A DNA stretch of 56,216 bases, the filler included, from Jimgerdemannia flammicorona (Eukaryota): the NCBI GenBank assembly GCA_003990765.1. It is 3 parts of 3 records of this genome, joined end to end, with 100 filler letters (N's around TTAATTAATTAA, not from the genome) between each part and the next. Parts side by side here need not be neighbours in the genome. Positions count along the whole stretch, not along the records: positions 37,545 to 56,216 come from RBNJ01002142.1; 2 more parts are not named here. The stretch is one strand, 5' to 3'. Below the pieces are notes generated by a model. It ran no database searches. It saw only the letters and a list, made by a program, of their open reading frames with translations, and was not told the origin of the DNA. The translations under genes and the position numbers were made by a program. Positions within the stretch are counted from its first letter, which is position 1; every line of letters starts with the position of its first letter. Of this stretch, positions 18,673 through 56,216 are shown piece by piece.

Positions 18673-18772
18673 NNNNNNNNNNNNNNNNNNNNNNNNNNNN
18701 NNNNNNNNNNNNNNNNTTAATTAATTAANNNNNNNNNNNNNNNNNNNNNNNNNNNNNNNNNNNNNNNNNNNN
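18673..18772. other. Artificial contig linker (N-TTAATTAATTAA-N)
   Basis: 100-bp block of Ns around a six-frame stop 12-mer, identical to 37445-37544. Confidence 0.95.
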
Positions 18773-21715: not shown

Positions 21716-21719
21716 CAGC

Positions 21720-31600: not shown

Positions 31601-32128
31601 GGGAAGCAGGGAAAGAGAGGTGTGCTCAGCAGTAGCAGAGGATGATATGGGCCTCACAGCAATTGGCAGCACTTATAGGGAGATGGACAGGAGTGCTAGA
31701 AGACTGGGAGGCAGCCAACTGGCATATTATGAGGATCCAGAAGAAATTTGAGGAGCTTAAGGAGGTGTTACAAAGAGAGGAAGAGGTTAGGCTGAAGGGG
31801 ATAGTGGTATGGCTGAGGTGGCAGAGGCTTGAGAAGGAAGTGAGACCCACTAGGTTTTTATCAAAGAGGTTATAAGTACAGAGAACTAAGCAGTGGTGGG
31901 ATGGGCTCCTGGATGTAGATGGGGAGATGGTGGTGGAGACTCCAGCGATTCTGGGATTACTGAGGACTCATTGGGAGGATTTGTAGAGTGAGGAGAAAGG
32001 GGGGAAGGATGCTTTGAATATTGAGAGGCAGCTGGAGGATTGGTATCTGGACCCTACAATAGGCCTGGAGACTCTGGGAGAGCTAGTGAAGGGTGAGGAA
32101 ATTTGCAAGATCTTGGCTACAACAATCG
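28698..32128 (+). mobile_element. L1/Tx1-like LINE (5' end, ORF1, APE), decayed, interrupted by a younger copy
   Basis: Colinear with 32129-35555; ends at EEICKILATT, where the younger copy starts. Confidence 0.9.
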
Positions 32129-32197
32129 ACCCTTTCACCAGTAACATTCGGGTGACACAAGGCTCAGACAACACTTTTACAATGTTCTTGGTGTCCG

Positions 32198-34117
32198 ATG
32201 ACTAACAACATGGATGGCAATGATCGATCTGGTGAGCATACTGACCAGGGGGGTGACGGCGCCTTTGGCTGGCAGTTGGTGGGGAGGAGGGGAGATGGTT
32301 TGGGGATGCCAGGGGCCTCGATGGCTAGCCGAGGCCCCAGTGGTGGAGGAAGGGGAGGTCTGAGGCAGAGAGGAGGGGAGAGGTCGACCTTTGTGGACAG
32401 GGTCAAGATAGGGAAGATGGCTTCTGGGCTGGATAGTTGGCTGGGCCTGGGGAAGGCGTCATTGGCTACTGCTGGGGGTCAGGGAGGTGCACCCCAGGGT
32501 CCTTCTAGTGGTAGGGTAGGGGCCGGAGTAGGGGCTAGAGATGTGACTGTTGATGGGGCTGTGACTGGGGATCTGGCAAAAAATCCAGATGTGACAGCAG
32601 TTGGCATTTCAGGACTTGGAGTGGGCATGAGGCCTGGGGACCTGGCGGATGGCATGGTGTCAGCCCCATTACTCAAGAAGTCGAGGTCCGAATTCGTGGT
32701 CATGATGTGCTTCCGGGGCTTGGCAGTGATGGCGAGGATGATTCTGGGGCTGGTGGCACAGGAGGCTAAGGGAGCAGTATTGGTGAAGTTCTTGAGGGGA
32801 AAGGAAGGGGTTGAGGTGGGGTTTGAGGAGGAAGACGCCTTGTTGGCAGCCATGGAGAAGGGGGTGAGGGTTGGCGAGGTTGTGGTCCCTATGGCCCGGT
32901 GTATGCACTGGGACCCCCAGGTGGTGCAGTTGATAGTGTTGGACCTTTCTATGGTGTCGAAGGAAAGGACCAGGGAGTTGGTTGTGGGGGTGATCAAGGA
33001 GTATGGCGAGATTGTGGATGTTGGGTTCAAGGTCTGGGAGGGTACAGAGCTGAGAACGGGAGATATCGATGTCAGGGTGAGACTTGCTGGAAAGGAGAAT
33101 ACAGGGAAGTTGAGGGACTGGCCAGCAGCACTGAGGTGGGGACAGGTGGAGTGTAAGGTCACGAGGGTGAAGGGGACTCAGGAGGAGGAGGAGGACCTGT
33201 TGGAGGCTCTGGAGGACCTGGAGGGGGCAGTTGCGAGGAGGAGATCAGCCTGGAAGGAGTTTGAGGCCAGGACGGTGGTGGGGGAGGTGGATGGGAAGAG
33301 GGTTCAGATGGAGAAGGGGGCTTGGGAGAAGATGCAGGGGAGGAGGATCCAGAAGGAGCTGTTGGCGAAGTTGGATGGGGGTAGGGCTGGTGGAAGCTCT
33401 GGGGTGGGGGCTGCAGGGCTGCAGGAGAGTGCCTGGGCTGAGGGGGGAGAGATGGCCCAGGGTGGGGCTCAGTTTGGAGTCGGGGAGGAGGGGGAGGATA
33501 GCTTGGAGGTGGATGCCGAAATGGGGGAAGGTGGGCGCCCTCAGTATAGTGTTCCGAATGGGGCGGGAGGCGAGGAGGAGCTGATGGATGTGCCAGATGA
33601 GGAGTGGGATGAGTCGGTGAGGAGGAGCACGCTGGTGGACCCCAAGGTGGATGGGGGACAAATTGCTCAGGGGGCAGCGGAGGCAGTAGATGAGGAGAAG
33701 TGGATGTGGAAGACCCTGGAAGGGGTAGTGGCTGAAGAGCTGGGGGGTGAGGACTTCAGGGTGATGGAGGAGAGGCATTGGGAGGAGATTCTACGTGGAG
33801 AAGAGGTGCCAAGGAAGATGAGGAATGAGATCCTGGCTGTCCTCCTGGAGTCTGTTGAGTATCAGGTTGATGATCAGCGAGAGGAGGAGCTTAGATGGAT
33901 TGTGAGTAACAGGGCACTTGTCTTGTGGAACTCGAGGAAGGGCCTAGAGAAGTGGCGTGCAGTCTGCTTGGATTATAGGGCGGATATGGAGGAGGTGGAC
34001 AGGGTGGAGTGTCAGGAAATTCTGGGGGCACTGGATGCTCGGGATATTGTGGAGGGAGAATTGGAAGCTGAGCGGCTCTTGGACTTGGTGAGGGATGAGA
34101 TGAGCATGGAATTATAG
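32198..34117 (+). CDS. LINE ORF1 protein, 639 aa (probable RRM-like nucleic-acid binding region; acidic C-terminal half)
   Basis: Long open frame directly upstream of APE-RT; homologous fragments in three other copies. Confidence 0.85.
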   Translation: MTNNMDGNDRSGEHTDQGGDGAFGWQLVGRRGDGLGMPGASMASRGPSGGGRGGLRQRGGERSTFVDRVKIGKMASGLDSWLGLGKASLATAGGQGGAPQGPSSGRVGAGVGARDVTVDGAVTGDLAKNPDVTAVGISGLGVGMRPGDLADGMVSAPLLKKSRSEFVVMMCFRGLAVMARMILGLVAQEAKGAVLVKFLRGKEGVEVGFEEEDALLAAMEKGVRVGEVVVPMARCMHWDPQVVQLIVLDLSMVSKERTRELVVGVIKEYGEIVDVGFKVWEGTELRTGDIDVRVRLAGKENTGKLRDWPAALRWGQVECKVTRVKGTQEEEEDLLEALEDLEGAVARRRSAWKEFEARTVVGEVDGKRVQMEKGAWEKMQGRRIQKELLAKLDGGRAGGSSGVGAAGLQESAWAEGGEMAQGGAQFGVGEEGEDSLEVDAEMGEGGRPQYSVPNGAGGEEELMDVPDEEWDESVRRSTLVDPKVDGGQIAQGAAEAVDEEKWMWKTLEGVVAEELGGEDFRVMEERHWEEILRGEEVPRKMRNEILAVLLESVEYQVDDQREEELRWIVSNRALVLWNSRKGLEKWRAVCLDYRADMEEVDRVECQEILGALDARDIVEGELEAERLLDLVRDEMSMEL

Positions 34118-34148
34118 GTTAAGGTCTCTTTTACAATATCCATTCAAT

Positions 34149-37100
34149 ATGAACAGTACAACTAGGATATTCTCATTGAACATTAATGGGTTACAGGGGG
34201 CGGCTAGGAGGAAGTACATCTTTGGTTAGCTTCGGGGTCTGGATGCGGACCTCTTCTTGTTGCAGGATGTTCAGTATGATGCTGATGTGGATTTACTGGA
34301 TTGAACTAAGGAATGGGGGGGTGCAGCAGTTTGGAGGGGGAAAGTGGGTATTCTGGTTCGGAAAGGGATGGGGGACATTGGGGACATTGGACATTGGGGG
34401 GCGCAGGTGGTGTGGTGAGTATGGAAGAGGCCTGGTTGGGGCCCGCTGATGATTGGGTCTTGTTACTGCCCGGCTGAGAGAGGGGAGAGGGTGGATTGGA
34501 TTCGCAGATTGAAAGAAGCTGGTTTATTGAGAGAAGTTGGGTTTGACTGTATGGGAGGGGACTTCAACATGGTCCGGGATAAGGAGTTGGACAGAACTGA
34601 CAGAGGGAGAGGTGTGTGAGGTGAAAGTTGTGGGTTGGCAGACTGGTTGGAGGTGGAAAGGTTGTGTTCTTTGGTGGACTCAGAGAGACATTTTTGGGCT
34701 GATCGGCAGGTGTATACCCATTGGGCGGCAGGACTGGGCTCTAGGATTGATTGGGTTCTAACAGCAGAGTGTTGGGGAGTGGATGTCTGGACGATACTGG
34801 GAGTGGTGTGGTGTCCATGGTCCGATCACTGGGGGTTGCTTGGAGGGGGGAGGTTTGGGGGAAATGAGGATGGGCCTGGATATTGGCGGCTAAATTCTTC
34901 CTTGTTGGAGGATAGGACATTGTGGGGGGGTTGGGAAACAGAGGTGGTTGGCGATATCGGCAGGTGGCGGGATCAAGGACTGGCAATTGGGGACCACTGG
35001 AGAAGGTTGAAGGTGAAGGCTCAGGGATATTGGAGGGAAGCAGGGAAAGGAAGGAGTGCTCAGCGTAGGCGGCAGGTGATATGGGCCTCGCGGCGTTTGG
35101 CGGCGCTCATGGAGAGATGGGCGGGTGTGCTAGAGGATAGGGCAGAGGTGGATTGGCATATTGCGAGAATCCAGCAGGAGGTGGAGGAGCTTAAAGGGGT
35201 GCTCTGGAGGGAGGAAGAGGAGCAGCTGCAGGGAATGGTGGCCTGCTTGTGATGGCAGGGGCTTGAGGAAGGGGAGAGATCTACCAGGTTCTTGTCACGG
35301 TTGTTACAAGTACGACAGATGAGGCAGTGGTGGGAGGGAGTTTTGGACGAGAATGGCGAGCTGGTGGTGGGGACCCTGGCGATTTTGGGCCTATTGCGAT
35401 CCCAGTGGGGGAACCTTTGGAGTGAGGATGACGGGGGACTGGGTGCTCTGGACATTGAAAGGCAACTGGGGGATTGGCACCTGGACCCTGCCATGGGACT
35501 TCTGGCATTGGGGGACCCGCTGAGCGGCGAGGAGATCTGCGAGGTAGTGGCCTCTATGAGTAAAGGGACAGCCCTAGGAGAGGATGGACTTCCCTGGGAT
35601 TTTTGGAAGAAGATGATAGGGGTGCATGAGGTACTGGAGGAAATGATGGCTATGTGTGATGAAGTTCTTCGGTCTGATGCCTGGATTGGGAGACAGTGCT
35701 TGGGGCTGGTCTCCTTGCTATATAAGAACAAGAGCAGAAGGGAGGATTGGAAGAACTGGCGGCCAATCATGCTTCTGGACATGGACCGCAAACTGGTGAC
35801 GAAGATCTTGGTGTTGCGGTTGCAAGAGATCGCGCAGCAGGTGCTTGGTTTGGAGCAATGTGGTTTTGTTGGTGGTCAGTTGATTCGAGATGGGATGGCC
35901 TGGGTTCATGGAGTGATTGAAGGTGTCCGGGCTACCGGGGTGGATGGCAGATTGGTATTTCTGGACCAGGAGAAGGCTTATGATAGAGTGCGGAGGATAT
36001 GGCTGGAGGGAGTGCTGAAGCGGATTGATATCTCCCCGGGTTTCTGAGGTTCATTGATCAGTCTCTTGGAGGACAGTCAGGCGGCATTGGTCATCAATGG
36101 CCACCAGGGGGTGACCTTCCCCCTGGGCCATGGGGTGCCGCAAGGGGACCCCTTGTCACCCATGTTGTATGCCCTTTCCCTGGAGCCACTACTGGACAGG
36201 ATTCGGCAGAAGATTGGTGGTTTGGACGTTATAGGGGTGAACTGGAAGGTGGGGGCCTTTGCCGATGATATGGTGGTTGGACTGGGTTCCTTGGGGGATG
36301 TTGGAGAGCTGTAGAGAATGGTGGAATGGTATGAGCAGGGCTCTGGTGCTATACTGAACTGGCACAAATGCAAGATGCTGGTGCTGGGAGCTGGAATTGT
36401 TGGGGGCGATGTTATTGGAATGATGGTTCCGGCCGGGGAACCAGTGTGCTACTTGGGGATCTACTTCTCGGTGTTTGGATCTCTTCTTCCCCGGGTATGG
36501 TGGGACCATAAACTGCTAGAGTGGGGCAATGTCTTGGTGCAATGGGGCGGCCGGCATATGTCCCGTGCCGGAAGGGTGATGGTGTTGAATGTGTACTGGA
36601 TGCTGAAGCTGTGGTATGTTGGTTATCATTTGGATTTCCCACTGTGGGTAGTTACAAGGTTGTTGAAGATGGCGAGATTGTGGATTTGGGGAGGGCGGCG
36701 GAGCCAGGTTGGTTGGGAGGTGCTCACACTGCCCTTGGAAAGAGGTGGACTGGGCTTAGTGGACTTTACTAGGTGGCTTTTATGTCTGAGGGCCTGGTGG
36801 CTAAGAAGGGCGAGTGAGCTTCGAGGTCGGGAGTGGGTGCCACTCATGCAGAGGCTGTGGGAGGTTCGATACTCCCCACAAGGTGGCTCTGGCGACCTGC
36901 TTGCAATGGTGGCCATGGACAGGAGCCGAAGGATGTGGTTTACAGGCTTTTGGTGGGGGGCGGTGGATGGTGCTAAGAAAATCGGCCTTCGGTGGCAAGG
37001 TGACGAGGCCGAAGGGGTTTGGGGACCACAGATGCTGAGATGGGACAGGCTTCTATTGGGTGGTGTTCTGGTGGAGGACTTTCAGCTTGGCAAGGGTCTG

Positions 37101-37444
37101 GAGTGTCTGTGAGGCCTAGGTGGAGACTTGTGGCCTGAATCCTGGCAGAGGGTTGGCATCGGGGAAGAGTGGGATTGGAATGGGCTCTGGCTTTGGAGCA
37201 AACGGGTGAGGCAGTAGCTGCCCCCCAAGTTCTGGTTGGCATGGTGGCAGATCCTATAGCGGAATGTGATGCTGAACTATCGGTCTGGTCACTTGGTGGA
37301 TGGTGGGGTGTTCGAGTGTGAGGATTGTTTCAATGTTGGTCAGGAGAGAGGAGTGGTACAAATGCCTGAACATTGGCTTGGCGAGTGTGAGGTTTTGGGG
37401 GAGTTCTGGAGATATATAATGGACAGGTTAGGGTTAGGGGCTGG
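34149..37444 (+). pseudogene. LINE ORF2 (APE endonuclease-RT-zinc knuckle) with premature stops
   Basis: SLNINGL, LLQDV, GGDFN, SRIDW, WSDH; WRPIMLL, LDQEKAYD, GVPQGDPLSP, AFADD, YLG; CEDC...EHWLGEC. Confidence 0.92.
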
Positions 37445-37544
37445 NNNNNNNNNNNNNNNNNNNNNNNNNNNNNNNNNNNNNNNNNNNNTTAATTAATTAA
37501 NNNNNNNNNNNNNNNNNNNNNNNNNNNNNNNNNNNNNNNNNNNN
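37445..37544. other. Artificial contig linker
   Basis: Same N-TTAATTAATTAA-N block as 18673-18772. Confidence 0.95.
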
Positions 37545-37849
37545 TGTACTCTTTTTGCAATCGTAATTTGAATGTAGGAGAGCTGACATTCCTTGATCCA
37601 GTCTTCTTTTCCCATCTTTGGTTTTGAATTCAGTAGCTGTCCCAACTTGAAGTATTCCTGGAACTCGGTTCGGTTCTGGTAGGTCTTGAAATGTGAGATT
37701 CATGATAAGTGCGTCTGCACTATACTCTGGATGCTGTCGAAGGATTCCTCCATCATTGGTGGCTCAGTGGAACACCACTGTCTTTCTATAGCTCACTGGG
37801 CCATACTAGTGATCTTGAGGGCAGCAGCATTACTTCGTTGACTGGTCAT
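37545..37849 (-). pseudogene. Gypsy-B accessory ORF after integrase (partial; two in-frame TGA)
   Basis: From ATG 37849: MTSQRSNAAALKITSMAQ*AIERQW...HLS*ISHFKTYQNRTEFQEYFKLGQLLNSKPKMGKEDWIKECQLSYIQITIAKRV, running into the gap; similar to the LTR ORF at 45362. Confidence 0.7.
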
Positions 37850-39032
37850 GATACTTCTTGATTCGGTTTCGGTGAATGGTAGTAGGGATGATTGTGCCTG
37901 AGAGTTTTCGTAGCCAAAAGGTGGTCCCTTTTATATCTTGCACCAGATAAGGTCCTTCCCACTTAGGCTCCAGCTTTCGTGACCATGAAGCTTCTACCAT
38001 GTTCCGATACACCAGGACTTTGTCTCCTATCTTGATAATCTCCAGGGGCTTGTGAGTCTTTTCTGCATTACTCCATTGTAATGTCTGCGCCTTGTTTATA
38101 TAATCCTCAGCCTTCTTCCTTATTTGGTGCAGTTTCCGTATCTCTGTGTCCACTCGTTTCCATACAGCATCTGCATTGGATGATAGGGTTCCTTGAGAAC
38201 TTTCTTCTCCGAATAGCATTTCTCGAGGAGTGAAGTGGGTACTTTATGATCTGATATCCCGGAGAGCAGATAATGCTATTGGCAGATAGTGATCCCAGTT
38301 TTCATAGTTATCACAGATCTTGGCGATAATATTCTTGAGAGTCTTGTTGGTCCTTTCTGCTTGTCTGTTTCCTTGAGGGTGATAGGCTGTAGTCTGAATG
38401 TGCTAGATCTTGTACTTCTTGTAGAGAACCTCAAAGACCTGGTTCACGAATTCTGTTCCTCTGTCTGTAGTTACTTGCATTGGGGTCTTGAACCGGCAGA
38501 TGATTTCTTTGTAGAAGAAATCAGCAATTGACTGTACATTGGCTTCCTTGAGGGGTCCTGCTTCTATCCACTTCGTAAAGAGGTCTACAATGACAATGAT
38601 GTATCAGTTGCCGGTCAAGGTCAGGGGTAGGGGGCCAATTACATCCATTGCTATGTGGGCAAATAGTATCGGTTCTATATGTGCTGATCCCGGGGCTTGG
38701 TTCTGTTGGTCTTGTTTTTGTTTCTGGCATTTGTCACATGTTTTGACAAATTGTCTGATATCTTCCTCCATTCCTGGCCACCATATTGTTCTTCTTGCTT
38801 TATTGTATGTATTGGTTCCTCCTAGATGGCCGAGTTCATGTACTGATTTCATTGCTTGCTCCTTCCTGTGTTCTGGTATGACTAGTAGTTTTCCTTTCCT
38901 CAGTGTTTCTCCATCAGTTTCGAATTGTTTCCATGTCCTGTTGATAATTGTTTGTATCCATTCTTCCAGATGTTGGGGCATCTTTCGCTGTCCCAGATAT
39001 GTGATGATTCCGTAGTAGAGCTCCTTATTCAT
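37830..39032 (-). pseudogene. Gypsy-B integrase (separate reading frame, a few stops)
   Basis: MNKELYYG...HELGH...CDKC zinc finger, MDVIGPLP core, KLEPKWEGPY C-terminus; no chromodomain. Confidence 0.9.
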
Positions 39033-39039
39033 AATTGAT

Positions 39040-42012
39040 TCATTGGTTGGGGGTGTTTCGGGGTGTCCGTGAGAGAGCATCTGCATTGGAATTTGTTCTT
39101 CCAGGGCAGTGTACAATGGTTACATCATAGGCTTGTAACTTCATTATCCATCTGGCATAGATTCCCTTGGGTTGTCCAGTTGTCAGTAGCCAGGTGAGAG
39201 CTGAGTGGTCCATCTGAATGGTGAAGTGTCTTCCAGCCAGGTAGTAGTGGAACTTTTCCACAGCCCAGATGACTGCGAGACATTCCAACTTGTAGGATTC
39301 GTATTCTTTTTCGGCTCCTCGGGTTCCGCGGCTAAGATATGCAATGACATACTCCTTTTTGTCTTCCTTTTGAGCTAGGACTGCTCCTAGTCTCTGTACA
39401 CTTGCATCAGTCTGCAGGATGAATTCTTGAGTCCAATTGGGTTGTCTGAGGATGGGTGCCTGGGTCAGTCTGACCTTGAGTTCATCAAATGCTTTTTGTT
39501 GTCTGCCAGTCCACTGGAACTTGATGTCTTTTTTGTTGAGTTCGTAGATTGGACCTGCGATGTTGGAAAATCCTCTGATAAATCTACAATAGTAGGAGGC
39601 AAGTCCCATGAAGGCTTGGGCTTCCGTCACAGTGGTGGGCCTTAGGTATGCTGCTACTGCTTGTATCTTGAGGGGGTCTGTGTGTGTTCCATCTCGATTG
39701 ATAATGTGGCCAAGATAGGAGATTTCGATTTCTGCAAACTTGCATTTCTTGGGCTTGATGTACAGGCCATGCTTTCTCAGACTTTCCATTATCTGCTGTA
39801 TGTGCTGCAGGTGTTCCTCGGGTGTCTTGCTGTAGATGATTACATCATCCACATAAACCATCATCCATTTTCCCATATCATGGCGGAAGATTTTGTTCAT
39901 CATTCGCTGGAAGCTTGCTGGTGCATTGCACATCCCAAATGGCATTCGCAGGTAGATGTAGGTTCCATCTGGGGTTATGAAGGCTGACTTTTCGCTTGCC
40001 GTTTCTGTGGGTCCGATTTGGTGGAATCCTGAGTATAAGTCCAAGGTGCTGTAGTACTGTGCTTCATCTCCCAGTGTTATAAGGATGTCGCTGATGAGGA
40101 GCAGTGGTTGGCAATCTTTCTTGGTAACTGCATTGAGCTTTCTGTAGTCGACACAGAGTCTTGGGGCAAATTCTCCAGGCTTGCTTCCTTTTTTCAGGGC
40201 TAGTACAACTGGTGAAGACCAGGGGCTACTGGCTTCTTTGATAATACCGGCTTCTTCCATCTGCTTGATTTCTTCTCTGAGCCATTCCTGGTAGGCTGGC
40301 GGGACAGGTCTTGCTTTTTGGTAAATTGGTTCGGTGTCTCCAGTATCTACCTCATGATAGTAGTGTGGTGTTTTTCCTTTGATATCCTTGAAGTCTGTGG
40401 CAAGGACATCCTCGAATTCATGGAGTATTTTCTTGAGTTCCTCCTTGAGTGGGAATTCGTTTCCAATGGTATAGCTATGCTTGTTTGTGGTTTCCTCCTT
40501 CTTATGCTCCAGTTCAGTGATCTTGGTACTGGCAAATACTCCTTTTCCTGTGGATCCGAATCCTTTTTTTCCTCTTTTCGTTTCCTCCAACTTCTTGACT
40601 TCTATGATCTTTGGTTGTCGGACTTGGAAGATCAATATCTGTGCCAGTTGGTCCTTCTTCTTGATTGGGAATGGAATAGTAGGATTGTGATTCCTAGCGA
40701 TGAGTAGTATTTCTCCAATGTAGTCTGAATCGATGACTCCTCCTTCAATCATAATTTTACTTCTTGCCAAACTGCTTCTTGTCTTGAGGATCCCAACATG
40801 ATTTTTTGGGATGGTCATCTCCAGGCCAGTTGCAAGTAGAGTAGTTGTCTGGGGTTCAAGTACAGTTTCCTCTACTGTAGTGATATCCATTCCGGCTGCA
40901 TTTTCCGATTTGTATTCTGGCAGGACTGCATCAGGGTGAATCTTCTGGATTTTGACCTTGATTTCTTCTTCGTCATCACTGTCTTCCAGGAGGGCTGGTG
41001 GTTCGTCATCTTCCTCCTTGTCTTTTTCCTCTTTGGCTTGCTCCTTGAGAGTCTTTTCTCTTCTTTGGTGATGGATTTCCTTGATTTTGCTGGTGCACTG
41101 GTAGCACTCATTGACATGCTCCATACAGTACATTCGAATCCCATGTGGGCAGACTCCTTGTGGTGCATATCCTTCTGCGATCTTCTTGCACCATTCTTCT
41201 TCACTCATCCATCTGACTTTCTTCTTCTTTTTCTGTGTGGTCACTATGTAAGCTTCTTCTTGCTCATCTTCCTCCATCTCGGGGAGCACTCCTTTGTTGA
41301 CATTGATGGGAATTCGCATCTTCTGACCTCGGTAGATAATCTGCATCTTCTGAGCATTCAGGTCGATTATTGCCCTGGCTTTATGAAGCCACTGGTTGCC
41401 AATAAGAATGTCATAGTTGGTTGCATTGGTTACTATCACATCCACTGGAATAGTTGCTCCTCCAAACTTGATGGGAACATCTCGGATTTTTCCCAAAGGG
41501 GTGGCTCTTGTACCATCTGCTGTGACAAACACCAATTTGGTTGCTTCTTCAACCTCCCATCCCAGGTGGTCTACTGCCTTCTTGCTGAGGAGGCATCCTC
41601 CTGCTCCTGTATCTATGATGGCTTCAAAGATTCTGTCTTCGATTTGGCAGATTGCATAGGCGGAAGTCTTGTGGTTGTCTTCACTTTCTTCTCCAGAATC
41701 TTCTTGAACATTGTTGGCTTCAGTTATCTTCCAACCCTGCTCCTTGGTTGTTTCGGCAAGTCCAAATCTCATTTGCTGTCTAAACGTAGGAATTTCTGCG
41801 AGCTGGCCGAAGGTTGCATTGACTTTTTGTTGGCTGAGATCCTTGAAGATATCATACTTGAAGGTCTTGGTTTTGCGAAGCTTCTTCTCCTTTTCTCCTT
41901 CACTGGCTGGAGTAGTTCCTTGGATGATATCTTGAACTGCTTGTTCAAGCTCTATATCTTGATCCATTTCTTCGGCTTGGCTTTCCATGGCTGTTTCCAT
42001 CTGTTTTTCCAC
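39040..42012 (-). CDS. Gypsy-B pol segment: protease-dUTPase-RT-RNase H (990 aa open; same frame as gag)
   Basis: IIDTGA; AAGMD/RSS/GVIDSDY/AQ/RGKKGFGSTG; RLCVDYRKLN, MPFG, YVDD; TDAS, ADALSR. Confidence 0.93.
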   Translation of the reverse strand: MEKQMETAMESQAEEMDQDIELEQAVQDIIQGTTPASEGEKEKKLRKTKTFKYDIFKDLSQQKVNATFGQLAEIPTFRQQMRFGLAETTKEQGWKITEANNVQEDSGEESEDNHKTSAYAICQIEDRIFEAIIDTGAGGCLLSKKAVDHLGWEVEEATKLVFVTADGTRATPLGKIRDVPIKFGGATIPVDVIVTNATNYDILIGNQWLHKARAIIDLNAQKMQIIYRGQKMRIPINVNKGVLPEMEEDEQEEAYIVTTQKKKKKVRWMSEEEWCKKIAEGYAPQGVCPHGIRMYCMEHVNECYQCTSKIKEIHHQRREKTLKEQAKEEKDKEEDDEPPALLEDSDDEEEIKVKIQKIHPDAVLPEYKSENAAGMDITTVEETVLEPQTTTLLATGLEMTIPKNHVGILKTRSSLARSKIMIEGGVIDSDYIGEILLIARNHNPTIPFPIKKKDQLAQILIFQVRQPKIIEVKKLEETKRGKKGFGSTGKGVFASTKITELEHKKEETTNKHSYTIGNEFPLKEELKKILHEFEDVLATDFKDIKGKTPHYYHEVDTGDTEPIYQKARPVPPAYQEWLREEIKQMEEAGIIKEASSPWSSPVVLALKKGSKPGEFAPRLCVDYRKLNAVTKKDCQPLLLISDILITLGDEAQYYSTLDLYSGFHQIGPTETASEKSAFITPDGTYIYLRMPFGMCNAPASFQRMMNKIFRHDMGKWMMVYVDDVIIYSKTPEEHLQHIQQIMESLRKHGLYIKPKKCKFAEIEISYLGHIINRDGTHTDPLKIQAVAAYLRPTTVTEAQAFMGLASYYCRFIRGFSNIAGPIYELNKKDIKFQWTGRQQKAFDELKVRLTQAPILRQPNWTQEFILQTDASVQRLGAVLAQKEDKKEYVIAYLSRGTRGAEKEYESYKLECLAVIWAVEKFHYYLAGRHFTIQMDHSALTWLLTTGQPKGIYARWIMKLQAYDVTIVHCPGRTNSNADALSRTPRNTPNQ

Positions 42013-42144
42013 CAGGTTCTTCTTGGGTCTTCCTGGTGGTCTCTTGTAGGGTTCCTTGTGAACATCCTTCTTGGTAGTCTGTGCAGGGTAGGCCTCCCAT
42101 TCTTCGTCTGACTCTCCAATTTTCTCAAAGGTGATGATGTTGGC

Positions 42145-43014
42145 CTATTCCTTGTTTTTAGTAGCATTGCTCAGCTGGGCCTTGTGCTTAGTTTCACTCA
42201 TACATTCATATGAGTAGTGGCCTTCTTCTCCACAGCTATAGCAGGTACCTTTCTTCTTGTCTGAGGTGGCGGCAAACTTCTGAATCGGGTGGCGATCTCT
42301 TCCTCTAATTTCTTTTACTACATCCCCTAGGTGAGCAGTCATTTTGGCGAACTGCTTGGCAAGCTCCTCCATGGGGTTGCTGTTTCTCTACTACTCTGTA
42401 GCTCTCATTTGAGGTGTGTTTCGATTGATCATTGTGGTGGGGATCATACTGGTTGCCTTGGGTGCTTCAATTCTAACTCCAGTGACTCTTTCCATTGTGT
42501 GGTCTTGTGGGTGTCTGGCTATCCAATATCGCTGAGCATAGGTGACCTTCTGTGGCAGATCCAGAACTACTGGTGATGAGCGAATAGCCATAGCTATCTC
42601 TAGATGGACTCCTTTCATGAAGCTTGCTTCAGCTACTTGATCTCGGATAGCATCAGCATAATCTGCGAGAATTATCTGATATCGGATTCAGGTGTAGAAT
42701 GTGTTTGGATCCTTGCTCATTCCTTGGCATGTTGTATTGAGCTGATCCTTCAGGGCTTGCTTAATCTCCTCTGTGTAGTAGGTATTTTGAAGCCAGGTCT
42801 TCTGTGCTGTCAGTATGACATAAGCATCATTTCCTGCATGGGTTGCGGCTGTGAATACTGCTCTGGCAGGACCTCATAGACTGAAGGGCATGAGGGCTAC
42901 TTGCTGTGCTGCTGTCAGGGTTCTTACAGCGGCGTACTGCTCGAAATCATCGATGAAAGTGATGATTGATTCATCTGAGGTATATCCATGGAATACTGGT
43001 GGTCTCATATCCAT
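42145..43014 (-). pseudogene. Gypsy-B gag (few disruptions)
   Basis: Starts MDMRPPVFHG; CCHC knuckle; the TAG at 42145 aligns with a Gln codon in family C (REQTN), implying a single gag-pol frame. Confidence 0.85.
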
Positions 43015-43109
43015 CTTGTCTTGGTTTCTTGCCTCGGTTTGTATGGTTGTTTGGGTGGTGGCGGTTGTTCATTGTTCAGCTTGAAAGTGAGGGATTCGTC
43101 TTGAATCAC

Positions 43110-43125
43110 CAGCCAATGGGCACCA
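43110..43125 (-). promoter_or_regulatory. Primer binding site of Gypsy-B (tRNA not assigned)
   Basis: TGGTGCCCATTGGCTG begins 3 nt after the LTR terminal CA; nearly the same at 46900. Confidence 0.7.
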
Positions 43126-43128
43126 AGT

Positions 43129-43592
43129 TGTAACGTAGCAGACGCTTACTCTTGAAAGTACGTCAGATTTCTGTATCTTGAATACTTGATCTTCTCTGAC
43201 TCCTCGGAGTCCTTGGGATGCAGGGGTGGGTGAGTTCGAAGTGTATCTGCCCGCAGGCTTACTAGTTCCTTTGCTTTCTCTTTGCTTTAAACTATTTCAA
43301 TCTGAGGTTTATTCACTCGAAGATACTGGGTTATTTATACAAGTTTGCTAGCTATAAGGTGGCTAAGTGGTGAGTCATTCTGCAAGTATCGCATCTTTCA
43401 ATATCTGCTAGGATTTCACTGATTGCAAACATTCTAACATCTCCTAAATCTTTGCAAACATTAAAGTTTCTGCACTTTGCAGAATATGACTGCTATTTAT
43501 GTGGCTAAACTATATTGGGAATCAGATTCAGGTACCGCGATCAAATGTCTAATTTCCCTGTTTCATGTTACTAATTCGGATCAACTGTCACA
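43129..43592 (-). repeat. Gypsy-B 5' LTR (464 bp)
   Basis: tgtga...ttaca ends; homologous to 27234-27710; TATA, AATAAA and TCAG core at 43339-43301. Confidence 0.88.
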
Positions 43593-45120
43593 ATATGAAA
43601 GTCATTCTATTAGTATAGTGTTGAATATATATATAGTTATCTACTTTACAGTATATAAAGTCATTGTTAAAGAGATATTTATTGATTTTCTATTTCACAA
43701 ACAGACTGCTTACTTAATACTATATAATTCTTTATATAGTTTATATAATAGTTCATTCTACTTATCATTCTGCTAATATCCTTATAATTGGTAAATGTAT
43801 AACTCTATATCTATATCATTATTGAGAAAGATCATCTTTACATCTATCTGATGGATTTTCAGATTATATATAATACTGATTGCAAGAAGTATTCTTAGTA
43901 AAGTAAGCTTGAATATTGGTAAAAATATCTCACCATAGTCTATACTATAATTTTGCAAATTATTCTTAGCTATAAAATGTACTTTATATTACTCTATACT
44001 TCTATCACTCTTATGCTTAATTTTATAGATCTAATGAGATCTTATAACTTATTGATTGATCAGAAGAATACCAGATCTAATATACTATTCTTGATAAGTA
44101 AATTATATTCTTCATCTATAGCTTACTTCTATCTCTTATTGTCAGGAGAAGTTATCACTTTGTTGTATATTCTTAGCTCACTAGAAGTTACAATAAATGT
44201 ATATTTGTATATCTTAGTATAGCTTATATAGTCCTTATATTAAGAGATCTTTAGTATATTCTAATAACTTCTAAATTAGAATAAGTCTCATTTCTGAGCT
44301 TATGCTTTGACTTTTCCCTATCTTTGATAGACCTTTTGTTATCAGAAGTTTTATCACTCTTAATCTCTATTATTCTGAACTCAGATATATATAGTAATTG
44401 AAAATAATTTTAACTTATCAGAGAGGTTGATACTGAATGTTATACTGGTTGAAATGTAGATGTTAAAGTAGAGGTCAGGACAGATATATCTATGTGAATC
44501 TCTTTATTATTTTCTTTTTCATTGAACTATATGTTATATAAGATTAATGTATAATATTTATATAAATTTCACAATCTATACAATTTTCTATTATATCTAA
44601 GGAATATATACTCATCACTCTTAGGCTCAAATTTATACTGATTCTCTCCTTTTTCCAGAATATAGACTTTGTATCCAAATATATATAGATATAAAATTTT
44701 TAGCTTTATTCTGCTCCATAACTCCTCAGGAGTAAGATCGTGATTATTTCTGAATTACTTATTATTGTTATCAGATTCCTTACTCAATACTTAAGATATA
44801 TATCAGTTGTAGATATATATATATATTACTATATTGATAGTTTCAGTCTAATAAGAATATAATAGTCTAGCTATATTGATTATTATATATATCATTTTCA
44901 CAGCTATATAGTTAAATTGCTCAGCTATATCATTCTGCTGAGACATATATAGAGCTATTTATTGTGATAAACAGAAGAAGCAATTTATTCAAAAATACAT
45001 ATATTGTATATTTCATATATTACTGATGAATGACATAAAACTGATGAAATGGTATAAGCATAAAGTCATATACCTATATATTGAGTTACTATTCCAATAC
45101 TGTTATTTAATGATATACAT
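43593..45120 (-). pseudogene. Heavily mutated Ty1/copia relic (integrase core then RT)
   Basis: Minus-strand translation gives IALYMSQQNDIAEQFN (copia TAPYTPQQNGVAERxN) near 44960-44910, and IDYGEIFLPIFKLTLLRILLA...IHQIDVKMIFLN near 43945-43820. Confidence 0.8.
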
Positions 45121-45361
45121 TGTAATGGTGACCCCAGAATGATGACATCAGCACAGGAGATAGCCTTTCCTTGCAAGCCACCAGATCGGAGCACAAGAAG
45201 ATTATACAGCATATGAGATGAGTAGTGATGACCAACTGTGAGTCATTGTGACCATGGTATGGTATCTGGAGGAATATAAAAGAAGGATCAAGGAACTGCA
45301 GTAGCAGCAATCAACAAGACCCACTAATCCCAAAATAGCTCAAAGATTTACCACAAATGAA

Positions 45362-46174
45362 ATGCCTGCTGCCCGCCAAATCTCAAGGTCAAGAAATCAC
45401 CAAGATATCTCAGTCAAGGAAAGAATGTTCCAAGACATCAGAAGAGCCATGAGGACCTGCTCAATAAGGACTCCTAGTGTCAACCTGGGTACTGTAGATC
45501 CCTATTACTTTATCCTCTACTGCCATGAAATAGAAACAAGGATCACCATTGCTACTGAATGCCTCCAAATTTGGCAAGAGTATGAAATAGGAAACCTCCT
45601 CTGCCAGGAGTTCCCACAGGCCAGCACTCAAGAGCTACAAGATGCCACTCCCATGGACATACGCAAAACAAGGACAGCTAAGAAGATCCATCAGATCTTC
45701 TGGCATGCACCATGGTCAATCCCCAACTTAGAGTATGTTAGAGTCTCAGATTTCAGAGATCTGTCATCTCACTGTATCAATGCACTAGAAGCCAGGGTGG
45801 CTACAGAAGCCCAGTCCACTATTACCCTCAACAGTGAAGAAGTAGAAAACTTCTGGCATCCCATCCTTCAGGACAACCCAGACCAATTCCTGCAAGGATT
45901 GATCTCAGTATTCCAAGGCCCAAGCATCCAGGTTAGACCTCCCCAAGACCCCATATTTGTTCCCTATTTTGTGGAAGAGAACCTCATAGACTGGAGAGCT
46001 CCAGATCTCCTTGTTCTCAATTTCTCCGCCACCGAACATAATGACGTCATTGGCAATAACGTCATTCCACATGACATCGAAGCACACAAAAATGACGAAT
46101 TTGCAGATCTCATCTCCTTCAGTGATGATGATGATGATGATGAAGCCCCCATGATCCTGAAAATTCTGCTCTAA
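45362..46174 (+). CDS. LTR-encoded accessory protein of unknown function, 270 aa, acidic C-terminus
   Basis: Open frame inside the LTR; TATAAAA at 45275; same frame in all three LTR copies, with in-frame length differences. Confidence 0.8.
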   Translation: MPAARQISRSRNHQDISVKERMFQDIRRAMRTCSIRTPSVNLGTVDPYYFILYCHEIETRITIATECLQIWQEYEIGNLLCQEFPQASTQELQDATPMDIRKTRTAKKIHQIFWHAPWSIPNLEYVRVSDFRDLSSHCINALEARVATEAQSTITLNSEEVENFWHPILQDNPDQFLQGLISVFQGPSIQVRPPQDPIFVPYFVEENLIDWRAPDLLVLNFSATEHNDVIGNNVIPHDIEAHKNDEFADLISFSDDDDDDEAPMILKILL

Positions 46175-46185
46175 GTCCCATATTA

Positions 46186-46306
46186 CACTGAAGAATGCCA
46201 GCACCGGTATTTGATGTAATACTGAAGAATGCCAGTACTAGCATTTGATGTAACACTGAATAATGCCAGCACTGGCATTCTGAGGTAACACTGAATTATA
46301 CCAGCA
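46186..46306 (+). repeat. ~3.5 tandem 34-35 bp repeats, each containing an 18-bp palindrome
   Basis: Unit cactgaagaatgccagcactggcatttgatgtaa; also at 53630-53750 and 55623-55743. Confidence 0.85.
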
Positions 46307-46432
46307 TCCTGAATCTGTACAACCACCAGTGCCAACCTTGGAACTTAGTAGTTTTCCTATCCTGGCATTTTATTTTAGTTATTGGAATTTATATTTAGCT
46401 TTATATCTTAGTAATCATTAAATTATATTTTG

Positions 46433-46471
46433 TATAAATACTCCTCTTATTTCCTTTGAAATAAAGTCAGT
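46433..46471 (+). promoter_or_regulatory. Putative LTR core promoter/polyA module (TATAAATA-AATAAA-TCAGT)
   Basis: TATAAATA 46433, AATAAA 46460, TCAGT 46467; the same order occurs in family A (227-265) and family B LTRs. Confidence 0.55.
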
Positions 46472-46896
46472 TCTGGTTCACTTATATACTTCCTTGCAAG
46501 CAATCTAAGAGATAACAAGACAGTTTAAAGATAAGAAGTTTGAGGACTATAAGACCTTGGGAAGGCACTCCAATAAGAACTTACTTATAACAAACTTGTA
46601 GTTAGTCTAAGAGATATACCTTGAAGAGAATCTGATGTATTTGAAGGACTCAATGCCCACTATATGACAATGTGTATAATATAGTCTCCTCAGTTCTGGT
46701 TCACTTATGTATACACAATTCCTTGCAAGCAATCTAAGAGATAACAAGACAGTTAAAGATAAGAAGTTTGAGGACTATAAGACCTTGAGAAGGCACTCCA
46801 ATAAGAACTTACTTATAACAAACTTGAGTTAGTCTAAGAGATACACCTTGAAGAGAATCTGGCATATTTGAAGGACTCAGCGACCACTATGTGACA
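46467..46896 (+). repeat. Tandem duplication of the ~205-bp LTR 3' end (46467-46669 and 46690-46896)
   Basis: Both units start tcagttctggttcac and end cactat(a/g)tgaca; present in all three C LTRs. Confidence 0.9.
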
Positions 46897-46899
46897 ACT

Positions 46900-52200: not shown

Positions 52201-52554
52201 GAGAAGTAAAACGTGATGACTGCCCATGAGATTCTAGTCTGCAAATCATAACAGCATGTCTTGTGACCAGCAGGCTATCTGTCTGGACCATTCTTTAAGA
52301 GATATGGCACTGACAACTACTCATCCATGAGACTTTCGAAGTCAGAGGAGTTTGAACCATCAACTGATTAGTCAAGATCAGAATCAGGCCCTTGCTCTAT
52401 ATGAAGGGAGTAACCCTTCACCATCACACCAAAATACAAAGAGAAGATGCCATCCCATAAACATCACTTTTCAACCCCTTGCCAGAGGTTATGGGATCAG
52501 AAAATTTTTCAGGACTGGACTAATGAATAAGGACACTCAAGGAGATCCTTATTC

Positions 52555-52564
52555 AGGAGGAAGA
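52555..52564 (+). promoter_or_regulatory. Polypurine tract
   Basis: aggaggaaga directly before the 3' LTR TG. Confidence 0.7.
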
Positions 52565-54336
52565 TGTAATAGTGACTCCAGAATGATGACATCAGCACAG
52601 GAGACAGCCTTTCCTTGCAAGCCACCAGATCAGAGTACAAGAAGATTATACAGTATATGAGATGAGCAGTGATGACCAACTGTGAGTCATTGTGACCATG
52701 GTATGGTATCTGGAGGAATATAAAAGAAGGATCAAGGAACCACAGTAGTAGTAACCAATAAGACCCACCAATCCCAAAATAGCTCAAAGACTTACCACAA
52801 ATGAAATGCCTGCTGCCCACCAAACCTCAAGGTCAAGAAATCACCAAGGCATCTCAGTCAAGGAAAGAATGTTCCAAGACATCAGAAGAGCCATGAGGAC
52901 CTGCTCAACAAGGACTCCTAGTGTCAACCTGGGTACTGCAGATTCCTATCACTTTATCCTCTACTGCTGTGAAATGGAAACAAGGATCACCATTGCTACT
53001 GAATGTCTCCAAATGTAGCAGAAGGACAAAATAGGAAACCTCCTCTGCCAGAAGTTCCCACAGGCCAGCACTCAAGAGCTATAAGATGTCACTCCTATGG
53101 ACATACACAAAATGAGGACAGCTAAGAAGATCCATCAGATCTTCAGGCATGCACCATGGTCGATCCCCAACTTGGAGTATGTTAGAGTCTCAGATTTCAG
53201 AGACCTATCACCCCACCATATCAATGTACTAGAAACCAGAGTGGCTACAGAAGCCCATTCCACTATCACCCTCAATAGTGAAGAAGTAGAAGACTTCTGG
53301 CATCCCATCCTTCAGGACAACCCAGACCAATTCCTGCAAGGATTGATCTCAGTATTCCAAGGCCCAAGTATCCAGGTTAGACCTCCCCAAGACCCCACAT
53401 TTGTTCTCTATTTTGTGGAAGAGAACCTCATAGACTGGAGAGCTCCAGATCTCCTTGCTCCTGATTTTCCCGCCGCCAAACATGATGATGTCATCAGCGA
53501 TGATGTCATCCTGCGCAACATCGAAGCATGTGAAAATGATGAATTTGTGGATCTCATCTCCTTCAGTAATGATGATGATGATGATGAAGCCCCCATGATC
53601 CTGAACATTCTGCTCTAAGTCCCATGTTACACTGAAGAATGCCAGTACTGGCATTTGATGTAACACTGAAGAATGCCAGCACTGGCATTTGATGTAATAC
53701 TGAATAATGCCAGCACTGGCATTCTGAGGTAACACTGAATTATACCAGTATCCTGAACCTATACAACTACCAGTGCTGACCTTGGAACTTAGTAGTTTTC
53801 CTATCCTGGCATTTTATTTTAGTTATTGGAATTTATATTTAGCTTTATATCTTAGCAATCATTGAATTATATTTTGTATAAATACACCTCTTATTTCCTT
53901 TGAAATAAAGTCAGTTCTGGTTCACTTATACACTTCCTTGCAAGCAATCTAAGAGATAACAAGACAGTTTAAAGATGAGAAGTTTGAGGACTATAAGACC
54001 TTAGGAAGGCACTCCAATAAGAACTTGCTTATAACAAACTTGTAGTTAGTCTAAGAGATATACCTTGAAGAGAATCTGATGTATTTGAAGGACTCAATGC
54101 CCACTATATGACAATGTGTATAATATAGTCTCCTCAGTTCTGGTTCACTTATACACAATCCCTTACAAGCAATCTAAGAGATAACAAGACAGTTAAAGAT
54201 AAGAAGTTTGAGGACTATAAGATCTTAGGAAGGTACTCCACTAAGAACTTGCTTATAACAAACTTGAGTTAGTCTAAGAGATACACCTTGAAGAGAATCT
54301 GGCATATTTGAAGGACTCAGCAACTACTACATAACA
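52565..54336 (+). repeat. Gypsy-C 3' LTR (1772 bp)
   Basis: Colinear with the 5' LTR; ends ...ataaca. Confidence 0.93.
52806..53618 (+). pseudogene. LTR-encoded accessory ORF, 3' LTR copy with two nonsense transitions
   Basis: TGG-to-TAG at 53016 and CAA-to-TAA near 53082; otherwise colinear with 45362-46174. Confidence 0.85.
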
Positions 54337-54519
54337 ACCTATATATATTATATTTTCTCAGATACTGCTTGAATATCCTATTGATATATTCATATCTCTA
54401 TCTAAGTATATAGTATATAGTATATATTATGTTTCATTCTCTATAATTGCATTAAATTCATTGAATTTATCCAGGGCTTTGCTCTTTACTGATAATAAGT
54501 ATATATATATATTATATAT
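54337..54519 (-). pseudogene. Continuation of the copia integrase relic
   Basis: Minus strand reads YLLSVKSKALDKFNEFNAIIENET, the copia integrase segment that normally precedes the TPQQN motif. Confidence 0.65.
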
Positions 54520-56216
54520 TGTAACAGTGACCCCAGAATGATGACATCAGCACAGGAGACAGCCTTTCCTTGTAAGCCACTAGATCAAAGCACAAAAAAG
54601 ATCATACGATATATGAGATGAGCAATGATGACCAACTGTGAGTCATTGTGACCACAGCACAAGCACCCTGAAGAATATAAAAGAAGGATCAAAGAACCGC
54701 AGTAGCAGCAACTAACAAGAACCACCAATCCCAAAATAGCTCAAAGACTTACCACAAATGAAATGCCTGCTGCCTGCCAAACCTCAAGGTCAAGGAACCA
54801 CCAAGGTATCTCAGTTGAGGAAAGGATGTTCCAAGACATCAGAAGAGCCATGGGGACCCGCTCAAGAAGGACTCCTAGTGTCAACCTGGGAACTGCAGAC
54901 CCCTATCACTTCATCCTCTACCGCTGTGAAATGGAAACAAGGATCACCATTGCCACTGAATGCCTCCAAATGTGGCAGGAGTACGAAATAGGAAACCTCC
55001 TCTGCCGGGAGTTCCCAGAAGCCAGCACCCAAGAGCTACAAGATGCCACCCCCATGGACCTACGTGAAACAAGGACAGCTAAGAAGATCCATCAGATCTT
55101 CAGGCATGCACCATGGTCGATCCCCAACTTGGAGTATGTTAGAGTCTCAGACTTTAGAGACCTGTCATCCCGCCGTATCAATGCACTAGAAGCCAGGGTA
55201 GCTACAGAAGCCCAGTCCACCATCACCCTCAATAGCGAAGAAGTAGAAGACTTCTGGCACTCCATCCTTCAGGACAACCCAGACCAATTCCTGCAAGGAT
55301 TGATCTCAGTATTCCAAGGCCCAAGCATCCGGGTTAGATCTCTCCAAGACCCCACATTTGTTCCCTATTTTGTGGAAGAGAACCTCATAGACTGGAGAGC
55401 TCCAGATCTCCTTGTTCCCGATTTTCCCACCACTGCCGAACGTGATGACGTCATCGGCGATGACGTCATCCTGCGCGACATCGAAGCACGCGAAAATGAT
55501 AAAGTACATGAGATACGTGGCCTGCATGATGAATTCACGGATCTCATCTCCTTCAGTGATGATGATGATGATGAGGATGAAGCCCCCATGATCCTGAACT
55601 TTTTGCTCTAAGTTCTTTGTTACACTGGATAATGCCAGCACCGGTATTCTCATGTAACACTGGATAATGCCAGCACCGGTATTCTGAGGTGACGCGAAAT
55701 TGTTCCAGCACTGGTATTTTGATGTAACACTAAATAATACCAGCCTTGGAACTTAGTAGTTTTAGTTATTGGAATTTATATTTAGCTTTATATCTTAGCA
55801 ACCATTGAATTATATTTTGTATAAATACCCCTCTTATTTCCTCTGAAATAAAGTCAGTCTACTCAGTGCAATATACACACTTCCTTGCAAGCAATCTAAG
55901 AGATAACAAGACAGTTTAAAGATAAGAATTTTGAGGACTATAAGACCTTGGGAAGGCACTCCAATAGGAACTTGCTTATAACAAACTTGTAGTTAGTCTA
56001 AGAGATATACCTTGAAGAGAATCTGATGTATTTGAAGGACTCAATGCCCACTTTATGACAATGTATATAATATAGTCTTCTCAGTGCAGTACACACACTT
56101 CCTTGCAAGCAATCTAAGAGATAACAAGACAGTTAAAGATAAGAAGTTTGAGGACTATAAGACCTTGGGAAGGCACTCCAATAAGAACTTGCTTATAACA
56201 ACTTGAGTTAGTCTAA
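54520..56216 (+). repeat. Third family-C LTR (younger variant), runs off the window end
   Basis: Starts tgtaacagtgaccccag; colinear with 45121-46840; more CpGs retained. Confidence 0.92.
54763..55611 (+). CDS. LTR-encoded accessory protein, 282 aa (least mutated copy)
   Basis: Intact frame; extra residues relative to the 270-aa copy are in frame. Confidence 0.82.
   Translation: MPAACQTSRSRNHQGISVEERMFQDIRRAMGTRSRRTPSVNLGTADPYHFILYRCEMETRITIATECLQMWQEYEIGNLLCREFPEASTQELQDATPMDLRETRTAKKIHQIFRHAPWSIPNLEYVRVSDFRDLSSRRINALEARVATEAQSTITLNSEEVEDFWHSILQDNPDQFLQGLISVFQGPSIRVRSLQDPTFVPYFVEENLIDWRAPDLLVPDFPTTAERDDVIGDDVILRDIEARENDKVHEIRGLHDEFTDLISFSDDDDDEDEAPMILNFLL

Follow-up and report, generated by a model that had tools for sequence, protein, structure and literature searches.

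Probably homologous accessory ORFs on opposite sides of the PPT in two related LTR retrotransposon families of Jimgerdemannia flammicorona

Introduction

How an accessory gene could come to lie in front of the 3′ LTR in one retrotransposon family and inside the LTR in a related family is the question raised by two elements in a 56,216-nucleotide stretch of the Jimgerdemannia flammicorona genome (assembly GCA_003990765.1; "the window" below is the whole of the stretch that was analysed). An initial annotation of this DNA proposed that a frame overlooked behind the integrase gene of one element (family B) is a hidden homologue of the ORF carried in the LTR of the other (family C), and that one accessory gene family occupies the two sites, for example because the PPT/LTR boundary had shifted. 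Descriptions of extra genes in LTR retrotransposons usually place them in the internal region. If the proposal is true, B and C form a natural before-and-after pair for the gain and repositioning of an accessory gene, and one that could also serve to test how coding sequence can coexist with the promoter and integration signals of U3; at present the pair is valuable as a well-defined test case. A gene in an LTR is doubled at every insertion and survives in solo LTRs, which alters the length of time over which the host would be exposed to its product.

Coding sequence that reaches U3 is familiar from retroviruses. The sag gene of MMTV, a vertebrate retrovirus, is an ORF that lies wholly in U3, its LTR being unusually long, and it encodes a type II membrane glycoprotein. 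The ORFs of lentiviral nef and foamy-virus bel/bet cross the PPT into U3, a region that tolerates coding sequence, and one foamy virus study reportedly describes an ORF within U3. To our knowledge, protein-coding sequence inside U3 comes mainly from complex retroviruses; an exact-phrase search of the literature collection used here for a retrotransposon ORF within an LTR or U3 returned no case, which is not proof of absence.

For the internal region, the parts of the literature drawn on here describe additional ORFs in sense orientation, lying after pol and ahead of the 3′ LTR, as well known in plants (aORF-3S; PMC7264820), an ORF3 between pol and the 3′ LTR in the Vesta, Juno and TelKA elements of bdelloid rotifers (PMC5408684), and a dUTPase between protease and RT in rotifer lineages and in some basidiomycete elements (PMC5408684, PMC2864245). 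In the part of PMC7264820 drawn on here, additional ORFs are placed in the internal region only, with none inside an LTR.

Results

Two related LTR retrotransposons in the third part of the window

As the window is a concatenation of contigs, loci on either side of 18673-18772 or of 37445-37544 are unlinked in the genome, and the sequence break beside the family B frame was found to be a contig end (37445-37544), across which no B sequence is recoverable. The third part contains two related LTR retrotransposons, family B on the minus strand and family C on the plus strand, with the features listed here.

18673-18772 and 37445-37544: contig joins, N44-TTAATTAATTAA-N44; the window is three contigs end to end
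Contig end 37545 to the 5′ LTR at 43129-43592, minus strand: family B element
37830..39119, minus strand: family B integrase (Pfam Integrase_H2C2 4.4e-19, rve 5e-12)
39040..42144, minus strand: family B pol ORF, with protease, dUTPase, RT and RNase H (Pfam)
43129..43592, minus strand: family B 5′ LTR, 464 bp (alignment with the B′ and L001 copies, blastn)
45121..46898, plus strand: family C 5′ LTR, 1778 bp, with TG start and a PBS after its end
52201..52553, plus strand: family C spacer, 353 nt, from the integrase stop (52198-52200) to the PPT
52554..52564, plus strand: family C PPT, CAGGAGGAAGA, adjoining the 3′ LTR
52565..54338, plus strand: family C 3′ LTR, 1774 bp, 92.8% identical to 45121-46898
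54513..56216, plus strand: third C-type LTR, 85% identical, running past the window end and having no preceding PPT

In both families Pfam gave the domain order Asp protease, dUTPase, RVT_1, RT_RNaseH, Integrase_H2C2 and rve, with protease, RT, RNase H and integrase in the pol order of Ty3/gypsy-type elements (Metaviridae), and the direct LTRs, PBS and PPT of Metaviridae were present, the 3′ junction of B being taken from a B-type metagenome contig, L001. DNA identity across the entire internal region, with B 37849-43169 aligned to C 52187-46856, was 69%, and protein identity was 64% for pol and about 70% for integrase. We take B and C to be sister dUTPase-bearing Ty3/gypsy-type LTR retrotransposons. 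The dUTPase was located between protease and RT in each, at about 40540-40930 in B (Pfam E 9e-28) and about 49115-49500 in C (E 1.4e-29).

The integrase of window B has three internal stops, and its C-terminus reads ..RNRIKKYHDQSTK before the terminal stop, without a chromodomain. The B LTR is, as had been stated initially, a plain one of 464 bp (43592-43129); it has TG..CA ends followed by the PBS-like TTGGTGCCCATTGG, and contains TATAAATA and AATAAA. A PBS-like TTGGTG.. site is shared between B and C. Placement of its start was aided by boundary alignment with B′ (27230-). B′ is a second B-like 5′ LTR with a gag fragment, occupying 27230-28693 and 76% identical to B 43596-42140.

At family C no matching target-site duplication of 4-6 nt was found (flanks TACAT at 45116-45120 versus CTATA at 54339-54343), an absence that may be due to decay or to inter-element recombination. 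Comparison of the ORF from LTR to LTR gave a dN/dS of 0.48 where about 1 was expected, and the two C LTRs may derive from different insertions joined by recombination. With the third LTR as reference, 89 of the 111 polarised changes between the C LTRs (80%) were C>T or G>A, at CpA sites and CpG sites alike and with a CpG observed/expected ratio of 0.08-0.15, a pattern resembling RIP or methylation-driven decay.

The overlooked family B frame is a third gene

37545..37849, minus strand: family B ORF3, codons 1-101 of about 153; pseudogene, ending at the contig join

The minus-strand frame 37849-37545 translates exactly as it had been quoted, and its start does overlap the end of the integrase gene, with the ATG (37849-37847) 20 nt before the integrase stop (37832-37830). 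Two in-frame stops and no others interrupt it, both of them TGA, at codons 19 (37795-37793) and 50 (37702-37700). The initial annotation ascribed these stops to decay of CGA codons, and such an origin is plausible because C>T decay is common here (the 89 of 111 C LTR changes above); arginine occupies codon 19 in all seven of the relatives that cover it, and codon 50 in eight of eleven (Q in two, W in one). Against it, the sole B-type DNA available, that of L001, has AGA and CGG at these codons.

When the window frame, with TGA read as X, was searched against 5.8 billion public metagenome proteins, all 11 candidate relatives were found to be intact (83-153 aa, 67-88% identical, E 1.5e-44 to 1.8e-26), and a profile built from these 11 sequences (A1) matched the window ORF3 frame with an E-value of 1e-57. 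A corresponding C profile (A2) was built from seven sequences. The contig L001 (6479 bp, with about 71-75% DNA identity to window B) holds an intact ORF3 of 153 codons at 5795-6256, overlapping the integrase end; it was the one B-type locus found in the metagenome scan, and none was found in viral contigs with the A1 and A2 profiles. Comparison of ORF3 between window B and L001 over 99 codons gave a dN of 0.131 and a dS of 1.64, and the resulting dN/dS of 0.08 argues for strong purifying selection. Between the same two copies identity was 80% for ORF3, 75% for pol and 83% for integrase. The frame thus displays both the conservation and the purifying selection of a conserved additional ORF (aORF), and on the 11 intact relatives and the dN/dS of 0.08 it was upheld as a real third gene of the element. 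Judged by these sequence comparisons, the existence of the gene is certain and ORF3 of window B is a decayed, truncated copy of it.

Assembled contigs from four DNA or unlabelled runs were compared with 37545-38400 at a likeness of at least 80% and provided no spanning piece. The region was covered by many short, diverged contig pieces (148, 11, 28 and 31 records in the four runs), and the two TGA sites were not covered among the matches listed.

The family C ORF lies within the LTR

45362..46174, plus strand: C LTR ORF copy 1, intact (translation; A2 profile match 1e-148)
52806-53618, plus strand: C LTR ORF, 3′ LTR copy, with two internal stops
54763-55611, plus strand: C LTR ORF, third LTR copy, intact (translation)

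The C ORF frame was present in all three C-type LTRs of the window and intact in two of them. It encodes about 270 aa at LTR positions 242-1054, the ATG of copy 1 being at LTR position 242 within a frame that is open from 45305. Seven public proteins of 48-80% identity, all with the frame open, were found as relatives, and dN/dS among the window copies was 0.30-0.48. The conservation of an aORF (three of three LTRs, seven relatives) was seen for C also. The C-terminal portion of about 110 residues is conserved among these sequences (..FWxPILQDNPDQFLQGLISVFQGP..YFVEENxIDWR.., an acidic run, and LNFLL) and has no counterpart in B.

Both TATAAATA (about 46437) and AATAAA (about 46461) are downstream of the ORF, which is therefore, like sag, wholly in the LTR and upstream of TATA box and poly(A) signal. 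By this motif reading the ORF would fall within U3, the U3/R assignment being made on motifs only. About four tandem repeats of about 34 bp were observed right after the C ORF stop (46186-46310), and 224 bp are tandemly duplicated in what is presumably the R/U5 part of the C LTR (46467-46898).

That the frames of both families could be non-coding accidents of a spacer and an LTR was considered, given the two stops in the window B copy, the two in one C copy, and the lack of a Pfam, PDB or Atlas family match; a dN/dS of 0.08 at a dS of 1.64, together with intact ORFs in 11 and 7 diverged public relatives, leads us to reject this reading.

B ORF3 resembles the N-terminal part of the C ORF

The homology had been proposed from a match of 39 residues, and within the window this match did not rise above chance (7/39 identities, 11.5 bits, E 27); when the 101-aa window frame was aligned with three C ORFs by Smith-Waterman, 93, 735 and 399 of 1000 shuffles scored at least as high. 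The likeness between B and C therefore failed on window sequence alone but became significant once full-length B relatives from outside were used. With these, the similarity continued in register past the window truncation (B IAKRIHKLFRDDESALAHLRGVTPTDF against C VVKKIHQVFRHAPWSIPNLEYVKVSDF), with AKRIHKLF..DF of B aligned to AKKIHQIF..DF of C. BLASTP of P0014 against P0005 gave an E-value of 3e-4 with 16/63 identities, and P0017 against P0008 an E-value of 0.05 over 10 residues. Ten B/C pairs were tried in Smith-Waterman shuffle tests, of which the best scored 77, a value reached by 0 of 1000 shuffles (Gumbel p 6.5e-6; B 17-152, C 3-164), and four others had Gumbel p values from 2e-4 to 0.017; the scores of L001 ORF3 were reached by 671 of 1000 shuffles against window C3 and by 107 of 1000 against P0005.

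Alignment of A1 with A2 by hhalign gave a probability of 74% and an E-value of 2.8e-5 over 110 columns with 27% identity. Its score of 38.9 was reached by none of 315 column shuffles (mean 13.4, SD 2.5, maximum 23.7), none of 114 nine-column block shuffles (maximum 25.7) and none of 118 shuffles of A2, the C alignment (maximum 24.4), and the reversed alignment scored 16.4. This profile-profile comparison of the full-length families had been suggested initially as a check, and it came out in favour of homology (38.9 versus a maximum of 25.7 in 547 shuffles). Reciprocal profile HMM searches, suggested alongside it, did not confirm it: B to C gave E-values of 0.14-1.7 in a small database, and C to B retrieved no B ORF at E<10. 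In the six-frame translation of the window, the top non-self matches of the B profile were the three C ORF copies. A HMMER search of 1.84 billion proteins with the B profile gave three representatives, all B-type, with no bridging sequences among them. The AlphaFold2 models (pLDDT 52.9 and 39.7) were too poor for fold comparison; the helix orders of the two are compatible with each other, which is no proof of homology.

A chance or convergent resemblance between unrelated lineage-specific accessory genes would fit the non-significant hmmsearch E-values, the empty reciprocal profile search, the Smith-Waterman pairs at chance level, an hhalign probability of just 74% and the fact that both proteins are helical in low-confidence models. 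We hold it to be improbable, since none of 547 shuffles of three kinds came near the observed profile score, the best of the 10 pairs was matched by none of its 1000 shuffles at a Gumbel p of 6.5e-6, and the likeness extends collinearly into sequence that the initial annotation had not seen. From these alignments, homology of B ORF3 with roughly the first 160 residues of the C ORF is probable.

The two ORFs lie on opposite sides of one PPT

In L001 the ORF3 stop is at 6256, the PPT (CAGGAGGAAG) at 6287-6296 and the LTR start at 6298, this LTR beginning with TGTGAC as does that of window B; the placement of ORF3 before the PPT rests on this one B-type locus with DNA. The C PPT (CAGGAGGAAGA) has the same sequence as the L001 PPT (6287-6296), and the C ORF lies downstream of the PPT, with 241 nt of LTR sequence ahead of its ATG. 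The positions initially assigned to the ORF, before the PPT in family B and within U3 in family C, were thus borne out.

B and C could be aligned at the PPT, for about 45 nt upstream of it and for the first 50 nt or so of the LTR, with blastn of the PPT/LTR-start region giving 68% over 72 nt (E 0.005), and the last 30 nt or so of the C spacer match the block that follows ORF3 in B. With PPT, flanks and LTR start conserved across the two families, the boundary is the same one and the ORF lies on opposite sides of a single PPT; from the same conserved block it follows that the order of ORF and PPT was changed by rearrangement or by separate insertion. Of the proposal that one accessory gene family occupies two sites, the positions and a probable homology therefore stand, and the route by a shift of the PPT/LTR boundary is not supported.

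In that route, a new PPT upstream would have brought the ORF into the LTR in C, or the reverse would have happened in B, and it is true that at the RNA level the sole difference in order between B and C is that of the ORF relative to the block of PPT and U3 start. This block, with its 45 nt or so of upstream flank, is nevertheless kept recognisably the same in both families, and neither a second PPT-like site nor a significant copy of the LTR start was found after the C ORF. A scan for PPT with up to one mismatch, which gave 19 matches in the whole window, had none on the plus strand in 53619-54338 or 46175-46898, and matches to an old LTR start further inside the C LTR were not significant (10, 12 and 64 of 300 shuffles reached the score). 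We disfavour a boundary shift as highly improbable.

The C spacer (52201-52553) has stops in all frames, and no ORF3 relic was found in it as a plus-strand match to the B profile. Global alignment of the spacer with ORF3 DNA gave a z of 0.05 (138 of 300 shuffles), a comparison that is blind at such divergence; in DNA, the B and C ORFs themselves were likewise undetectable to one another (39 of 300 shuffles).

Carriage of the integrase 3′ end into the C LTR along with the ORF was a candidate that we rejected. Scores for the 120 nt upstream were reached by 40, 515, 101 and 752 of 2000 shuffles, that is at chance level in two of the four comparisons and marginally in the other two, and the positive control was reached by 0 of 2000. 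Blastn matches around the C ORF ATG to the integrase end were weak (E 0.038 and 0.33), and a MAFFT alignment was suggestive.

A second junction of ORF3 end, PPT and LTR start was observed at L001 1-130, 79% identical to the contig's own 3′ junction. This 5′ junction reflects either two elements in tandem with a common LTR or a contig that is chimeric.

Predicted products and expression

The seven proteins checked had maximum Kyte-Doolittle 19-residue means of 0.19-0.74 and polar N-termini, in agreement with the initial statement that there is no TM segment or signal peptide. With neither of these features of an env protein, no hydrophobic segment and no Pfam match, the product was confirmed not to be env. 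Pfam searches of the window C ORFs P0001 and P0002 found nothing at E <= 0.01, and the best Pfam matches of the 11 B members were HTH_Tnp_Mu_2 (E 0.031, 2/11) and Glycoprotein_B (0.15, 1/11). PDB sequence profiles gave best E-values of 0.046 and 0.56 and no family, and the ESM Atlas no credible family for the B or C ORF. Both proteins were predicted to be helical, at low confidence.

37924..37973, minus strand: exact 50-nt block at the integrase 3′ end, identical in window B and L001

Among the stretches that window B and L001 share exactly, only the PBS/leader block (68 nt) is longer. The 50-nt block contains TATAAAAG at 37935-37928, 86 nt ahead of the ATG of ORF3, and in the C LTR TATAAAAG recurs at 45275-45282, 87 nt upstream of the C ORF ATG; at the site corresponding to that of B, the C integrase has ATATCAAG. 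Viewed post hoc, this makes the 50-nt block with TATAAAAG a candidate for a cis element through which ORF3 could be expressed. Because U3 of the 3′ LTR is part of the transcript, no gene follows the ORF on the genomic RNA of either family, and from this 3′-most position translation of the ORF would need a subgenomic message.

Discussion

A repositioned cassette is the favoured explanation

The gene, its positions, the shared PPT and the sequence similarity were observed directly, and the explanation that we think likeliest, with moderate confidence in it as a whole, is that an accessory gene cassette present on opposite sides of one PPT was repositioned in evolution. Each family would possess a third gene, specific to the element, that encodes an accessory protein, soluble and probably helical. 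In B this would be the internal ORF3 of about 153 aa, starting in the last integrase codons and ending about 30-41 nt before the PPT; in C it would be the ORF of about 270 aa, wholly in U3 of the 1778-bp LTR, with its first 160 or so residues putatively a distant homologue of ORF3 and with a conserved C-terminal extension of an acidic run followed by ..LNFLL. The cassette would have crossed the PPT by rearrangement or re-insertion and not by way of a new LTR boundary. Its ORF may be expressed from a subgenomic message, either spliced or from an internal TATA-type promoter, as are retroviral 3′ accessory genes, and the product may act in trans on the element's own life cycle.

Between B and C, ORF identity is about 25% and that of pol 64%, whereas within B ORF3 keeps pace with pol. 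As ORF identity is so far below that of pol, simple vertical relocation is not the sole reading. The mismatch may reflect very fast divergence after the move, together with a new C-terminal half, or it may reflect separate acquisition of related ORFs, for example by recombination with other elements.

Under the latter, B and C (or their ancestors) would have acquired homologous ORFs independently at different sites, by recombination or from a common outside source, with no move within a lineage. This would account for the change from 80% (ORF3) and 75% (pol) within B to about 25% and 64% between B and C, for the 353-nt spacer that C retains without a trace of ORF3, and for the C-terminal part of the C ORF (about 110 aa) that lacks a B counterpart; modular sharing of ORF3 types among unrelated bdelloid rotifer retroelements is described in the part of PMC5408684 used here. 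No donor was seen, however, as relatives of the ORFs occurred only in these elements (in searches of 5.8 or 1.84 billion proteins), and fast divergence after relocation, under the new constraints of U3, would likewise account for the mismatch. We regard separate acquisition as possible but rather doubtful, and retain repositioning of one cassette as the preferred explanation.

A bolder form of relocation, which we think unlikely, would make the C U3 gene self-contained with its own TATAAAAG, so that each LTR, solo LTRs included, would by itself carry the gene for a trans-acting factor; the gene would have come, by template switching during reverse transcription, from the post-integrase position of a B-like ancestor, and would be a sag- or nef-like gene evolved independently in an env-less retrotransposon. 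The C factor may be a transcriptional activator, as its acidic C-terminal tail ends in the LxxLL-like LNFLL.

Comparison with known 3′ genes

B ORF3 is a new orphan member of the known sense post-pol additional ORFs. Like aORF-3S and rotifer ORF3 it is in sense orientation, located in the interval from integrase to PPT and conserved among copies, but unlike them it lacks a TM segment, shows no similarity to env, GDSL or DEDDy, and belongs to an orphan family. In the placement of their dUTPase the elements resemble the rotifer lineages and some basidiomycete elements. The C ORF is like MMTV sag in lying wholly in the U3 of a long LTR, in being carried by the 5′ and the 3′ LTR of a copy alike and in its 3′-terminal location on the genomic RNA; it differs in that its protein is predicted to be soluble and has no sequence similarity to sag, and in that the element is an env-less one of the Ty3/gypsy type. 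With nef and bel/bet the ORFs have in common that they are 3′ accessory genes and that coding sequence shares DNA with U3, but those genes straddle the PPT, whereas the C ORF begins 241 nt into the LTR and the B ORF ends before the PPT.

Other repeats in the window

When 67 of the 166 window frames of at least 75 aa (stop-to-stop) were run against Pfam, no host genes were found among them; the Pfam matches were to RVT_1 (three frames) and a zinc knuckle (one frame). Two stretches of high GC content (0.45-0.59), each with a very pronounced skew of G against C between the strands (about +/-0.4-0.57), were observed at 28700-37444 on the plus strand and, inverted, at 19149-25557, with 65-70% identity between them in opposite orientation. 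A tandem duplication of about 3432 bp is contained within these stretches, and an RT fragment (35253-36044; RVT_1 E 1.2e-8) lies in a skewed stretch. The two regions belong to a separate retroelement family. A direct repeat pair at 2383-2682 and 6849-7147 (92% identical) was also observed around minus-strand ORFs, with a weak RT match between the repeats at 3853-5157 (E 2e-4), and the repeats with the ORFs that they enclose are probably a further LTR element.
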